DNA of 36,970 nt from a virus (taxonomy: Duplodnaviria > Caudoviricetes). Position numbers and translations under genes: made by a program. Of this stretch, positions 19,408-34,150 are shown in pieces (position 1 is the stretch's first letter; every line of letters begins with the position of its first letter). The stretch is taken from IMG/VR virus record IMGVR_UViG_3300035660_000042, positions 1-36,970 of that record, one strand, 5' to 3'. A model generated the notes under the pieces. The model saw nothing but the letters and a program-made list of their open reading frames with translations. It ran no database searches and had not been told where the DNA came from.

Positions 19408-19494
19408 AGCAGTGTAGATTAGTCAGGTTAAATCGCTGGCCTCATAGCTTAGTGGGAGAGCCAGAGAGCGTTGGTTCAAATCCAATCACTGCTA
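19408..19494 (+). tRNA. tRNA-Met(CAT), initiator-like, with a 12-nt BHB intron at 37/38 (19447-19458)
   Basis: Acceptor AGCAGTG/CACTGCT (A1-U72), D stem GATT/AATC, anticodon stem CTGGC/GCCAG, T arm GTTGG-TTCAAAT-CCAAT. Intron helix CTCA/TGGG with 3-nt bulges TAG and AGA. Confidence 0.9.
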
Positions 19495-19496
19495 TT

Positions 19497-19568
19497 GCCA
19501 TTAAGGTGTAGATAGCGACACACTTAGTCTGTGCCTAAGAGAGAAAGGTGCAAATCCTTTTAGTGGCT
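19497..19568 (+). tRNA. atypical tRNA, anticodon TGT (Thr-like) by geometry
   Basis: Full cloverleaf: GCCATTA/TAGTGGC, GTGT/ACAC, CTTAG/CTAAG, AAAGG-TGCAAAT-CCTTT. Non-standard A8, C33 and G37. Confidence 0.65.
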
Positions 19569-19614: not shown

Positions 19615-20292
19615 ATGGCAAAATTGAAAAGTCCTGAATGGTATAATAATATAAGTAAAGCATTAAAGGGCAGAACTCCTTGGAATAAAGGAAAAATTGG
19701 ATATAAAAGAAAAACAAAAAATCCACAACAAGCAAATAAAAATATAAGTGAAGGAGTTAAAAAAGCTTGGAAAGATGGAAAATTTAAAAATGTTGATTAT
19801 TCTAAATCTTTAGAACATAGAAAAAAATTAAGTCAAGCCAAAATAAAATATTATAAAGAACATCCAGAAGAGGCAAAAGAACACGGAAAATGGGTTAAAG
19901 AAAATCAATCAGGAAAAAATAATCCTAATTATGGCAAGAAGCATAAAGGATTAAATGCCAAAGAGAAAAATCACTTTTGGAAGGGAGGAATAGCTTATGA
20001 ACCTTATGATGATGGTTTTGACAAGGATTTTAAACAATTCATAAGAGAAAGAGAAGATTATAGATGTTTTGAATGTTCTAATAAAATTACAGGAATAGAA
20101 AGATGGTTACACGTGCATCATATAGATTATGATAAGAAAAATAGCAAGGAATGGAATTGCATAGCATTATGTTCAAGTTGTCACGGAAAAACTAAAAAAA
20201 ATAGAGAATATTGGAAAAAATACTTTCAAAACAAGCTTATCCAAAAATATCCAAAATATGCAAAAGATTTAAATATCAGCATTACTACTTAG
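19615..20292 (+). CDS. free-standing HNH homing endonuclease with basic NUMOD-like N-terminus
   Basis: PWNKG, GKNNPNYGK, WKGG, CFEC...HVHHIDYDKKN...LCSSCH. Own TATA at 19586, 29 nt upstream. Confidence 0.85.
   Translation: MAKLKSPEWYNNISKALKGRTPWNKGKIGYKRKTKNPQQANKNISEGVKKAWKDGKFKNVDYSKSLEHRKKLSQAKIKYYKEHPEEAKEHGKWVKENQSGKNNPNYGKKHKGLNAKEKNHFWKGGIAYEPYDDGFDKDFKQFIREREDYRCFECSNKITGIERWLHVHHIDYDKKNSKEWNCIALCSSCHGKTKKNREYWKKYFQNKLIQKYPKYAKDLNISITT
20268..20275 (+). promoter_or_regulatory. TATA box of the portal transcript, inside the 3' end of the HNH gene
   Basis: AAAAGATTTAAATA; 29 nt before the ATG at 20297. Confidence 0.65.
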
Positions 20293-20325
20293 TTCTATGG
20301 CACTCTGGAAAGACAGAGCAATAAG

Positions 20326-23141
20326 ATGGCAAAAAAGAAAGATATAAAGAAAGAAGTTGCCCGTCTTAGAAGTGAAGTAAGAAAATTAAACTTGCAAAAA
20401 GTTGTCAATCCATTTACAGGAATTGTAAGCGGAAATTATTGGACACAAACTGGAATGCCTTGGGTGTCAAGCGAGGGAAGAAAGGCTGTCCTCACCGAAA
20501 TCAAAAAATAATTTTGACGGTTGTGGTTTTGGCAGCCAATCCGTGGGCAAAAAAGTTTATAACTTTTCCCAACACCCCGTCGTGTTGATACAAATGAACT
20601 CCGACAAGAAAATTCTCGGATGAGTTCAGCCAAACTTTCTGGGTTAATAGTTGCGTAAATGTTATTTTAGATGAGATTAGTTCTCTTGAATGGGACATAG
20701 TGCCAAAAGAAGAATGGGACTATGATATAGTCAGAGAAGGAATAGACGAAGTAAAAGGATTTTTAAAATATCCTAACAAAAACATAGAAAGTTTTACAAC
20801 ATTTCTTAGAGCAATAATTAAAGATATTTTAGAAGTAGATGCAGGAGTAGTAGTAAAAGTATATACTTTAGATAGTTATGATTTTGAACATTTAGAACCT
20901 AAATCTGGAGCACCTTTATTGAAACCTGTAGGACAAAGAAAGATGGTAGAATTATATGCAAGAGACGGAGCTTCTTTTCTAAAAGAAACAGACAAATTCG
21001 GATTTATTAAAGGTTATTGGCAATATTCTTATCAAATTCCCGCGCATCCTATGTGGTTTAACAAAGAAGAAATTTGTTATTTTATGAGAAATCAAAGAAG
21101 TATGTCTTGTTATGGTTATGCGCCTACACAAGCAATTATGGATTTAATTAAATCGCTTCATTATTCTACATTATATAATAAAAGATATTTTGAAGAGACT
21201 ACAATTCCAGATGGAGTAATGAGTTTAATAGGAACAAACGAAACAGAATTAAAAAACTTTATTACTCAATGGAATACCGAATTTAAAGCCCAACCTCACA
21301 AATTAGCAGTAGTGAACAGTGAATTTAAATGGCAACCTTTAAATGTAAGCCAGAAAGAATTAGAATTTTTAGAAACTCAGTCTTGGTATTATAAGTTAAT
21401 TATTTCTATGTTTGGCTTAACTCCAGCAGAATTAGGATTAACAGAAGATTTAAACAGGGCAACTGCTGCAACACAAACAGAATTAACAAAGAGAAAAGGA
21501 ATAAGGCCACTTCTTAAGATAATTGAAAGCTATATGAATGCAGACATAATCCCTGAATTTGGCTACGAAGGAATTGAATTTAGTTTTATTTATGATGACC
21601 CACAAGAAAAAACAGTTAAATTAGATAATTGGGGCAAAGAAATACAATTAGGATTGAAAAGCATTAACGAAGTAAGAGTAGAAATGGGAATGGAACCAGT
21701 AGATTGGGGCGAAGGACAAGCAGGAAAATTCAATATAACTCCTTACTCACCTGAAACTGCGCAATCCACAACCGCGCAAACAGAAGAAGAAGGCATCCCA
21801 GAAGAAGCAAGTGAAGGACAAGCAACCGCGCAAACAGAAGAAGACGAAAGAAGAAGCGAAGCAGAAACAGAAAGAAAAGAAAGAACATTAGACCCTTATT
21901 CAGATGCAAGTCGTCCAGTAGGAAGCTTTAGAAGTGCTAAGTTAAATTTAGAAAAAGGTAAAAAAATAGAAATGGATACTGATGACTTAATTGAAGAACA
22001 TAAAAAACTTGTTCAAATATTAGAAACAGCAAATCCACAAGAATTGAAAGACGAAGCAGATAAGCAAAGAAAAGAATTAGAAAATTATATGCAAGAAAAA
22101 CAATTAACTCCAATTAGTGAATATAGTGGAGTAAATTATGCAGGAAAAACTGATATGAGCAAAGATATATCAAGAGAAGAAAGAGAAGAAATAATAAGAA
22201 TAGTTTACGATAAATTAGTCAAAGATATATATTTAATCTTGCAAAGAACAGGAATGGGAGCAGGAGAAGCGGCAAGAATAGCCAATTTACTTCAGCAAAG
22301 AGGAAGATTAAAAAGTAAAGGGGTAAATGATGGACAATATTACAGAGAGCCATTTGAAGTAATTAAGCCAAGCAGAGGAAAGATAGAACAACCTCAAAAT
22401 AAGCCTAAACCTATGGGAGCTCCAAGCCAATTTCAAGATACAGGATTAGAAACATCTAATTGTCCAGTTTGTGGCTTTCCTACTTTGCATTTAATTACAA
22501 GTGCAGATGACTTAGCAAGAAGCAAAGTTTATCATTGTAATAATTGCGGAGTAACTCTTGATGAAGCAGAAGCCTTAGACCATAGTGTTTTAGATACTAT
22601 GTTTAGTCAGATGATGAGCAATCCTTATAGTGGAGCAATAACAACTCCACAATGGAGTCCTAAAAGTTTTGATAAGAAGTATGATGAGATAACAACTAAA
22701 GATTATATAGGATTTGATTTAAGTAAATCAGCACAATTTATGGAAGGATTTGTTATTAGCAAAGAATATTATAAGTTATTGAAAAAATATTTAGAAGATT
22801 TAAACAAAGACGAAGTAAAAACTATCATTAAAATACTTCAAGAAGGAATAAGTAAAAACGAAACAATAAGTCAAATTGCTAAGAAATTAGAAAATGTAAC
22901 TAAAGATTTAAGCAGAGCAAGATTAATAGCCAGAACTGAAACAATTAGAATAGCAAACGAAGGAAATAGATTACGAATGGAAGACAAAGGAATTAAGAAA
23001 GCAGAATGGATATCTGCACCAGAAGATGGAAGATTATGCGAAGAATGTAAGAAATTAGATGGAAAAATATTTAATCTCAAATTTTTGAAAAATAAGATAC
23101 CTTTGCATTGTAACTGCAGGTGCAGTTTTACTGAAAGATAA
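20326..23141 (+). CDS. portal protein fused to a Zn ribbon and a C-terminal MuF domain; predicted spliced CDS join(20326..20499,20524..20549,20574..20605,20623..23141), 916 aa
   Basis: Portal motifs (YPNKN, DILEVDAG, YGYAP, PDGVM, KELEFLE, FGLTPAELG, SINEVR) and MuF motifs (RARLIARTE, WIS..D.RLC..C, PLHCNCRC). Splicing restores the N-terminal ...ELRQFSQTFWVNSCVNVILDEISSLEWDI segment. Confidence 0.88.
20500..20523 (+). other. BHB micro-intron 1 in the portal gene (24 nt, in-frame TAA)
   Basis: Central helix ACCG/CGGT, bulges AAA and TGT, inner stem TCAAAA/TTTTGA, outer exon stem GGCTGTC/GGCAGCC. Confidence 0.85.
20550..20573 (+). other. BHB micro-intron 2 in the portal gene (24 nt, in-frame TAA)
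   Basis: Central helix TGGG/CCCA, bulges CAA and ACA, inner stem AAAAGTT/AACTTTT; outer stem is weak. Confidence 0.85.
20606..20622 (+). other. BHB micro-intron 3 in the portal gene (17 nt, shifts the frame)
   Basis: Outer stem GAAC/GTTC, central helix TCCG/CGGA, bulges ACA and TGA, inner stem AGA/TCT. Confidence 0.85.
21769..21844 (+). repeat. 22-nt direct repeat (TAQTEE) in the acidic portal linker
   Basis: CAACCGCGCAAACAGAAGAAGA at 21769 and 21823. Confidence 0.8.
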
Positions 23142-23179: not shown

Positions 23180-23611
23180 ATGACAAAAACAAAAGAAGAA
23201 TTAAGAAAATCGCAATATGATAATCCAGAAGTTAAAAAGAAATGGAGAGAAGCTAATTTAAGAAGATATGCAGAAAATCCTGAATTAGGAAAATTAATAA
23301 CTCAAAAAGCCCACGAAGCAATTATTAGAAAAAGTCAAGAAAGATTTAAAACAAACCCACGAATATGGATAAGCAAGAGAGGGTATAAGATGATATATGT
23401 TCCAAGACAAGGAGCAGTAAAATATCATCACTGGATTTGGAAACAAGCAAATAGAGAAATTCCAGAAGGAATGGTATTGCATCACAAAGACTTTGATAGA
23501 TTAAACAATAATATTAAAAACTTAATATTAATGGAAAAGAAAGAACATAGCAAATTACATTATGCTAAATTGATTATAGATAGATATGGAAGATTTGTAA
23601 AGTTAAGATGA
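23180..23611 (+). CDS. free-standing HNH endonuclease (HNH_3 type)
   Basis: HHWIW...IPEGMVLHHKDFDRLNNNIKNL....EHSKLH. TATA at 23151, 29 nt upstream. Confidence 0.85.
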   Translation: MTKTKEELRKSQYDNPEVKKKWREANLRRYAENPELGKLITQKAHEAIIRKSQERFKTNPRIWISKRGYKMIYVPRQGAVKYHHWIWKQANREIPEGMVLHHKDFDRLNNNIKNLILMEKKEHSKLHYAKLIIDRYGRFVKLR

Positions 23612-29884: not shown

Positions 29885-30193
29885 ATGGCAAACCAAGCGA
29901 TAGTGGAAACAGAGAAAAATCTACCAAGAGGAAGTGTAGAGATTGTTCCAACAAGGCAGACAGGAAGAGAAGACAAAGTCTTGTTGTCACCCACACAAGA
30001 TATTTTAACTGATAAACGAAGAGCGCATTATGGAGATGACGAAAATAAAGGAAATCCAAGAGGCGAAAATATTAAATTAGAAAATGTTAATGATATAAAA
30101 ACAAAAGTTAATATTACAAGAGACCAAGTTATTCAAGGAGATAATTCTGATACTGGACACACTACTGGTTTTGGTAGAGCTTGTGTTCAATAG
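29885..30193 (+). CDS. hypothetical protein
   Basis: ORF in the head module. Confidence 0.55.
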   Translation: MANQAIVETEKNLPRGSVEIVPTRQTGREDKVLLSPTQDILTDKRRAHYGDDENKGNPRGENIKLENVNDIKTKVNITRDQVIQGDNSDTGHTTGFGRACVQ

Positions 30194-30240
30194 AAAATGT
30201 TTATATATCAATAAATATTTATTATTTTATAGTAGTTAAA

Positions 30241-30645
30241 ATGGCAAAAAGTAAATATATAAGAACAGAAGAACATAAAAAAAATTTAAGTCTTGCTATG
30301 AAAAGATTATGGCAAAATTCTGAATATAGAAAATATATGTCTGAAATTCATAAAGGAAAGATACCCTCAAATGCTTTTCAAAAAGGACATAAAAGTTGGA
30401 ATGCGGGATTAAAAAATCAAAATTATAAAAAAAGATTTACAGTTTTTAATGGAAAATTTATGTTAAAAAGCCACGCTATTTGGATGCAATCAAATCACTT
30501 TTACAGAATACCAGAAAGTTTTTGTATACATCATCTTGACTTAAATCCTGAAAATAATAGCCCAGAAAATCTTGTATTACTACCGCACAATTTTCATACA
30601 AGTCTACATCATCAGATTTCTAAAATATTAAAGCAAAATATTTAA
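30241..30645 (+). CDS. free-standing HNH endonuclease with NUMOD3-like N-terminus
   Basis: RTEEHKKNLS; IHHLDLNPENNSPENL...H..LH. Confidence 0.85.
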   Translation: MAKSKYIRTEEHKKNLSLAMKRLWQNSEYRKYMSEIHKGKIPSNAFQKGHKSWNAGLKNQNYKKRFTVFNGKFMLKSHAIWMQSNHFYRIPESFCIHHLDLNPENNSPENLVLLPHNFHTSLHHQISKILKQNI

Positions 30646-31502: not shown

Positions 31503-32066
31503 ATGCCAAGAGGAATATATAATCATTATAAGATTAAAGGAGAAAATAATCCATCTAAAAGAAAAGATGTGAGAGAGAAGATAAGTCTTAAATTATCTGG
31601 TAGGATTATTTCTGATAAAACTAAAAAAATATTAAGTAAAATCCAAAAAGGATTACATAGAAATCCAGAAACAGAATTTAAGAAAGGACAGAAACATACT
31701 CAAAATTGGAAAGATAAAATGAGTGAAATACAGAAAAAAAGGTGTAAAGAAGGGAAACATAATTGGTGGAAAGGTGGAATTACAGAATTAGAATATAACA
31801 TAAGACATTCTTTACAATATAGAAAATGGAGAGATTTGATTTTTATAAGAGATAATTATATTTGCCAAGATTGCAAACAAATTAAAAATAGATTAAATGC
31901 ACATCACAAAAAATCATTTGCCAAAATATTACAAGAAAACAACATTAAAAATTTTGACGAAGCTATAAATTGTCAAGATTTGTGGAATATAAATAATGGA
32001 ATTACTCTTTGTGAAGAATGTCATAAAAAAACTGATAATTATTTACTTAAAGCGAGGTGGAAATAA
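31503..32066 (+). CDS. free-standing HNH endonuclease with NUMOD3-like N-terminus
   Basis: WKGG, RDNYICQDC...LNAHH...NGITLCEECH. Confidence 0.88.
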   Translation: MPRGIYNHYKIKGENNPSKRKDVREKISLKLSGRIISDKTKKILSKIQKGLHRNPETEFKKGQKHTQNWKDKMSEIQKKRCKEGKHNWWKGGITELEYNIRHSLQYRKWRDLIFIRDNYICQDCKQIKNRLNAHHKKSFAKILQENNIKNFDEAINCQDLWNINNGITLCEECHKKTDNYLLKARWK

Positions 32067-33628: not shown

Positions 33629-34150
33629 ATGGTATTTCAAAAAGGTAAAAAGCCATATATAATGACAGAAAAAATTAGAAATAAAATAAGAATTGCTTTA
33701 ATTGGAAATAAAAATAATTTAGGAAATAAATTGTCAGAAGAAACAAGAAAAAAAATAGGACAAGCAAATGCTATTGCATTATTAGGGCATAAACATCCAG
33801 AAAAATGGAAAAAACAAATGAGTAAAAGAATGAAAGGAAATAATTATGGTTTTAAGAAAGGACAAATATCTTGGAATTACATAGATGGAAGAAGCAAATT
33901 ATTAACTCCTGCAAGATATGGAGATGACTGGGATAAAATTAGATATTTAGTTTACTTGAGAGATAGATTTACTTGTCAGGATTGTGGAATTAAAGGAGTA
34001 AGATTAGACATACATCATAAAATTCCTTTTTTAGTTTCATTTGATAATTCATTAAATAACTTGATAACTCTATGTGGTTCTTGCCACAGAAAAGAGGAAA
34101 CAAGAATTATGAAAGAGTTTAAAAGACAGGAGGTAATAATCCTACGGTAA
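33629..34150 (+). CDS. free-standing HNH endonuclease with NUMOD3-like N-terminus
   Basis: LSEETRKKIG; RDRFTCQDC...HHKIP...N..NLITLC.SCH. Confidence 0.88.
   Translation: MVFQKGKKPYIMTEKIRNKIRIALIGNKNNLGNKLSEETRKKIGQANAIALLGHKHPEKWKKQMSKRMKGNNYGFKKGQISWNYIDGRSKLLTPARYGDDWDKIRYLVYLRDRFTCQDCGIKGVRLDIHHKIPFLVSFDNSLNNLITLCGSCHRKEETRIMKEFKRQEVIILR

Follow-up and report, generated by a model that had tools for sequence, protein, structure and literature searches.

The portal gene of a tailed virus is interrupted by three short inserts that lie within 123 nt of one another, near the 5' end of the gene. We consider it very likely that these inserts are mRNA introns of the archaeal BHB type, which host EndA would cut and an RNA ligase would rejoin; they probably persist by destroying the target of an HNH endonuclease encoded directly upstream. 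The virus is represented by a single contig of 36,970 bases, referred to here as the window; it carries terminase, portal, prohead protease, SU10-type capsid and tail-tube genes (Pfam, 37 ORFs).

Excision of three inserts restores the portal reading frame

Read without splicing, the portal ORF is called from 20700, and a 61-codon ORF upstream of it stops at 20511. A sequence-only reading had placed three BHB inserts in this region, and upon recomputation the coordinates, helices and bulges of all three agreed with that proposal (Table 1). Excising the three together gives a 2751-nt ORF encoding a 916-aa portal with zero internal stops, as predicted, while the remaining seven subsets of removals give only 61-94 aa each. 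Further details of the earlier reading also held: inserts 1 and 2 are in frame with one stop inside each, insert 3 is frameshifting, the internal exons measure 26 and 32 nt, and they use codons that are uncommon elsewhere, as counted over 10 further coding stretches of the window (CGT for 3 of 150 Arg, CCC for 3 of 119 Pro and CTC for 2 of 313 Leu).

Table 1. Positions of the portal exons and predicted introns, and of neighbouring and related features, in the window.
Feature	Position	Strand	Description	Basis
tRNA-Met(CAT)	19408..19494	+	12-nt BHB intron at 19447-19458, canonical 37/38	ARAGORN, Rfam
Second tRNA-like gene	19497..19568	+	anticodon loop UCUGUGC	Rfam RF00005, 41.5 bits; missed by ARAGORN
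NUMOD3-HNH endonuclease gene	19615..20292	+	free-standing; candidate homing partner	Pfam HNH E 6.7e-4, NUMOD3 E 4e-4, both weak
BRE/TATA-like portal promoter, archaeal type	20262..20275	+	within the HNH gene, at its 3' end	read from sequence
Portal exon 1	20326..20499	+	174 nt	ORF reconstruction, homologue alignment, protein-to-DNA alignment
Intron 1 (predicted)	20500..20523	+	24 nt, helix ACCG/CGGT, 6-bp stem, in-frame stop
Portal exon 2	20524..20549	+	26 nt; changes in the X1 relative synonymous only
Intron 2 (predicted)	20550..20573	+	24 nt, helix TGGG/CCCA, 7-bp stem, exon-side helix 1 bp, in-frame stop
Portal exon 3	20574..20605	+	32 nt; changes in the X1 relative synonymous only
Intron 3 (predicted)	20606..20622	+	17 nt, helix TCCG/CGGA, shifts frame
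Portal exon 4	20623..23141	+	Phage_portal domain fused to a C-terminal Mu gpF-like domain	Pfam PF04860 E 3.5e-31, PF04233 E 1.1e-15
HNH gene	23180..23611		among structural genes
HNH gene	30181..30645		among structural genes
HNH gene	31503..32066		among structural genes
HNH gene	33629..34150		among structural genes

In each of the three inserts, four Watson-Crick pairs lie between 3-nt bulges and the boundaries fall after the second nucleotide of each bulge. The intron-side stems of introns 1, 2 and 3 measure 6, 7 and 3-4 bp and the exon-side helices 2, 1 and 5 bp, respectively; given its 1-bp exon-side helix, intron 2 is a relaxed BHB form. A loose BHB scan is non-specific alone, returning 22 matches in the window of which four lie in the portal insert region. 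The 18 others have no support from split homologues, with relatives mainly covering the head genes. Minimum-energy folding recovered the full BHB for none of the three inserts folded singly, and the folding z-score of the whole insert region was -3.5. Because the loose scan is non-specific and the minimum-energy folds miss the BHB, it is the agreement of the boundaries with homology that carries the case, and not shape alone.

Homologous portals had been proposed as the test of these boundaries, and the junction peptide indeed aligns gap-free to intact homologues. Among the 120 homologues listed, 73 span all three junctions in BLAST with no gap there in the displayed part of the alignment, and nine contain an identical 32-residue junction-spanning peptide. 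A structure-blind protein-to-DNA aligner, using a profile built from 53 intact homologues, found the same three inserts of 24, 24 and 17 nt; the boundary of insert 1 is ambiguous by 1 nt in this blind alignment, and the BHB rule fixes its position. Removal of the inserts restores a conserved functional product, as expected of archaeal BHB (EndA-type) introns. A number of database portal homologues begin inside or just past the same region, and an intron hotspot would explain why gene callers truncate many portals in this family.

We regard it as very likely that host EndA would cut both bulges and a ligase, presumably RtcB-type, would join the exons to yield the 916-aa portal. Slow or partial splicing may suffice, since each head requires only a small number of portal copies (12). 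Group I or group II self-splicing introns were rejected as candidates: the ribozyme core of such introns exceeds about 150 nt and the inserts are only 17-24 nt, and the Rfam matches in the window are tRNAs only.

Divergent inserts at the same sites in a relative

The window matches one contig of run X1 without differences, and X1 may be the window's own source; runs X2-X4 contain short pieces of the region only. None of the runs listed for this region is an RNA run. A second X1 contig (depth 28.7) derives from a relative in which all three insert sites are occupied by divergent yet still-pairing sequences. The difference tables show that intron 1 there spans 31 nt and forms a 10-bp stem, that intron 2 has paired changes in both stem and helix, and that none of the eight substitutions in exons 2-3 alters an amino acid when read in the spliced frame. 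The loose end of this contig suggests a fourth intron, at the site occupied in locus L021. A short insert-less portal allele is also present in this run. Furthermore, a 7142-nt X1 contig aligned to window positions 20200-21223 represents a close relative with ~44 extra bases in exon 1, and thus probably with four or more introns.

These contigs bear on whether the inserts could be assembly or library artefacts at hairpins, which the earlier reading had raised as a means of refutation. The one run that contains all of the stretch, possibly the window's own origin, consists of contigs rather than raw reads. Against this, different inserts with paired changes occupy the same three sites in the second contig, nine more loci have BHB inserts nearby, and separate loci share sites 69, 83, 130, 131 and 164 but differ in the insert sequences found there, so that we regard the probability of an artefact as negligible. 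It is also highly improbable that the gene is a dead pseudogene, or that it is expressed as a 61-aa peptide and a shortened portal from 20700. Although both ORFs exist in the unspliced sequence, the micro-exons encode a near-invariant motif that changes only synonymously between relatives, the rest of the gene is without decay, and the pattern recurs across unrelated samples.

The 5' end of the portal gene is an insertion hotspot

A total of 76 related loci were gathered, and removal of 22 duplicates and 6 loci without an alignable N-terminus left 48 that are distinct: 29 intact, 10 with longer inserts and nine with inserts of 1-2 nt. When the window is counted in, 10 loci hold 22 inserts, each 13-36 nt long, distributed over 14 sites; these sites span about 45 codons, with up to three or four introns per portal gene and exons down to 24-32 nt. 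All 22 break translation, 17 by shifting the frame and the other five by containing a stop. Interrupted alleles are scattered on a quick tree (10 changes for 11 intron rows).

The full 4-bp BHB helix (4/4 pairs) is present in 19 of the 22 inserts. When 21 inserts of 10-40 nt were compared with a null of 1000 insert shuffles (maximum 4), the complete helix was found at a homology-compatible boundary in 18 (null mean 0.8) and a relaxed BHB in every one (null mean 0.9); moving both cuts by 1-3 nt retained the helix in 0/21. As in archaeal BHB introns, structure is conserved by covariation: at sites 83, 130, 131 and 164, the intron strand of the helix changes along with synonymous substitutions in the exon. 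Site 130, for example, has TCTG/CAGA or TTTG/CAAA, and site 164 has TGAT/ATCA, TGAC/GTCA or GGAT/GTCC. Outside the hotspot, no frameshifts were found in the rest of the portal (13,229 codons), and neither frame-breaking nor BHB inserts in five other genes (15,239 codons); two further genes had too few members to join this control set.

Ribosomes could instead bypass the inserts without splicing, as at T4 gene 60, a reading to which the early stops inside two window inserts, the mobile bypass element described in T4 (10.1101/2022.08.31.505936) and the need for translational rescue where relatives carry just 1-2 extra nt in this hotspot all lend weight. We nevertheless consider bypass very unlikely, as many insert boundaries fall within codons and bypass would not select a 4-bp helix that ends exactly 2 nt before both boundaries, the arrangement seen in 19 of 22 inserts.

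Larger inserts were also observed in this gene. Locus L014, the tenth of the related loci with longer inserts, has a 187-nt structured insert in the hotspot (L014:10161-10349; z -3.4), which ends in G and has no BHB at its boundary and no Rfam family; possibly it is a different intron type or a set of nested elements. In-frame inserts of 1032-1221 nt occupy three portal-core positions in L020, L021, L022, L053, L072, L074, L075 and L076. They are intein-sized and several database homologues have intein Pfam domains; the portal is also invaded by inteins. Finally, an in-frame Cys-rich, zinc-finger-like insert of 231-327 nt is located at portal profile position 162 in more distant clades (L001-L005, L024, L060, L061 and L063-L076). 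Among the rows displayed, none of the zinc-finger-like or intein-sized in-frame inserts had a BHB with an intron stem.

An upstream endonuclease often accompanies interrupted portals

The product of the HNH gene preceding the window portal retains the His/Asn/Cys motif residues and is 48-51% identical to those encoded upstream of the interrupted portals of L048 and L055. A motif similar to the promoter within its 3' end lies upstream of many relatives, as judged by a loose pattern with no shuffle control. Across the family, an endonuclease is encoded directly upstream of 15/20 interrupted versus 1/27 intact loci (Fisher p 3e-7), the intact loci being those with enough upstream DNA (L003 and L037 were dropped). 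The interrupted set breaks down into 7/11 intron loci, where one endonuclease is a fragment at a contig edge and one is Vsr-like, and 8/9 loci with 1-2-nt inserts, where it is an HNH gene. The exception among intact loci, L036, has an HNH-like ORF, and one intact locus added later also lacks an upstream endonuclease. Within the near clade, which was defined after seeing the tree, the counts are 15/20 interrupted versus 1/14 intact (p 1e-4). A tree-aware test based on the quick tree, with four pairs on supported branches, was underpowered and not significant (median p 0.25). All four single-intron loci have the upstream nuclease, and the four intron loci without it each carry two or three introns, as would be expected if old inserts outlive the nuclease. 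An adjacent free-standing endonuclease that co-occurs with the insert, one mark of a collaborative homing locus, is found here.

The introns might be spliced by EndA and yet be neutral or regulatory, unrelated to HNH, and cluster at the 5' end because stops that come early do no harm or set when the portal is expressed. This is unlikely in our view: while 5/20 interrupted loci have no detectable upstream nuclease and the tree-aware test was not significant, the nuclease accompanies just one of the 27 intact loci, all four single-intron loci and eight of the nine with 1-2-nt inserts, and the five other genes contain zero inserts. We judge it probable that the inserts spread by nuclease-driven, collaborative homing. 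During a mixed infection, HNH would cut the near-invariant N-terminal portal DNA of an insert-less rival, and repair would copy HNH and inserts together; the inserts are then likely to persist because insertion destroys the DNA target of the upstream HNH. Where one gene holds several introns, these could mark a series of invasions by nucleases that differ in cut site.

Several further nuclease genes were noted. At L061, the nuclease encoded upstream of a three-intron portal (L061:28-627) is DUF559/Vsr-like and does not belong to the HNH type; a second nuclease family may fill the role there. Four more HNH genes lie among the structural genes of the window (Table 1), where relatives cover the neighbouring genes in part and hidden inserts are possible. 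Scans that started from HNH mostly recovered the query loci. In L083 and L085, distant portals lie upstream of the HNH-like match, and these loci therefore provide no independent test of the link; L141 was a chance pattern match.

Relatives with inserts of one or two nucleotides

The loci with 1-2-nt inserts have otherwise intact portals (L016, L017, L020, L035, L042, L048, L051, L055 and L064), with inserts for example near 835 in L020 and near 4505 in L035. Of the ten events, nine affect two Arg codons, which are of the CG type in every case, and the tenth affects a Leu codon; L021 carries a 33-nt intron at one of these Arg sites. Because 1-2 nt are too small for BHB splicing, these alleles need a rescue other than splicing. 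Within the nine loci we found no tRNA gene, no antisense guide match inside the locus concerned and no fold common to the inserts. It is unlikely that CGNY is generally read as a four-base codon, given an in-frame CGT-CGT in the same gene of L064.

We lean towards ribosomal frameshifting as the rescue. It is the best guess because the surroundings of the inserts are like those of the +1 'savior' frameshifts that overcome single-base inserts in the mitochondria of glass sponges and ants (PMC5009743). As at those sites, a pyrimidine directly precedes a Gly or Val codon in the 1-nt class and creates a rare CGG, UGG, CGU or UGU codon in the zero frame. Unlike them, the inserts are viral and confined to one nuclease-linked hotspot, and frameshifting is here a candidate only. 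Such relatives would gain the same immunity, with frameshifting taking the place of splicing. For the family as a whole, which would be widespread among archaeal tailed viruses, we mildly favour the view that free-standing HNH endonucleases target the 45 most conserved portal codons again and again, and that escape may come through EndA-spliced micro-introns or through one or two frameshifted bases.

tRNA genes and the probable host

Upstream of the HNH gene, the tRNA-Met gene scores 59.9 bits in Rfam, where the alignment opens a 14-nt gap at the anticodon loop, and contains a BHB with a 4-bp helix and a 5-bp exon stem; 12 nt is very short for a tRNA intron. A BHB intron in tRNA-Met is an archaeal trait and a second sign of EndA use by the virus. 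No EndA-like domain was detected among the 37 window ORFs scanned with Pfam. The second tRNA-like gene has C at position 33, a UGU anticodon and an odd T-loop. In L060, three tandem tRNA genes (Gln, Pro, Gly; L060:3604-3826) with unusual anticodon loops lie directly upstream of the intron-bearing portal and are preceded by a Dam-like methylase gene and an IS200-like gene.

The closest named terminase match is in a Nanoarchaeia bin (62%), and other named matches are in bacterial bins (Bacteroidetes, Omnitrophica and Gammaproteobacteria). Species-genome searches with portal and capsid found no relative in either scan, annotated phages have distant portals only (about 24%), and the atlas classification is 'Viruses' only. 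Judging from the tRNA-Met intron, the TATA-like promoter and the terminase match, the host is likely archaeal, perhaps DPANN.

Comparison with known systems

In literature outside subscription journals we found no BHB introns in a viral structural gene, no clusters of them and no link with a free-standing HNH endonuclease. The published mRNA cases found in the main texts of that literature are cbf5 (coding) and one 5'-UTR only, and the portions consulted of PMC12397907, PMC11291895 and 10.64898/2026.10.13.758758 hold no further mRNA case. The family described here shows coding BHB introns gained many times in an essential viral gene, beside intron-less alleles, and the origin, spread and tolerance of such introns become testable in the portal system. 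If our reading is true, virion assembly depends on host tRNA splicing, which could serve as a host-range marker, and the family would provide a case, outside eukaryotes, of viral mRNA splicing that is catalysed by proteins and removes several introns, in which the path of intron gain can be seen.

The BHB intron of cbf5 pre-mRNA in Crenarchaeota is 16-44 nt long and is cut by EndA at one site in one cellular gene (PMC2738675). The portal inserts are likewise short BHB introns within coding sequence (13-36 nt, with EndA cutting predicted), but they occupy an essential virion gene, with three introns in 123 nt and 14 sites across relatives, and are nuclease-linked. A BHB intron in the 5'-UTR of Haloferax HVO_1309 has also been reported, in a study that names cbf5 as the only earlier mRNA case (PMC7714728). 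It too is an mRNA substrate of EndA, as predicted for the portal introns; unlike them, it is cellular, single and in a non-coding position. Closest in setting are the putative, unproven 12-bp introns in archaeal virus protein genes proposed by Peng et al. (according to PMC2738675). Those inserts are similarly short; however, they keep the frame and may need no splicing, whereas translation is interrupted by all 22 inserts here, which differ in length and change in step with the exon.

Collaborative homing of a free-standing endonuclease with a group I intron has been described in T3/T7-like phages, a cyanophage and ICP1 (PMC10448857, PMC2988022). As in those systems, the endonuclease gene lies outside the intron and adjoins an essential head or packaging gene, with the downstream promoter inside the nuclease gene. 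The phage group I introns are self-splicing ribozymes, in contrast to the 13-36-nt portal hairpins, which would need host proteins and lie several side by side. In phage T4, the gene 60 insert protects from MobA cleavage. Like the portal inserts, it is short, resides in an essential gene, is undone during expression and travels with an HNH gene. The T4 system nevertheless relies on a 50-nt ribosomal hop in a bacterial phage (10.1101/2022.08.31.505936) and not on RNA splicing, the route proposed for the portal introns.
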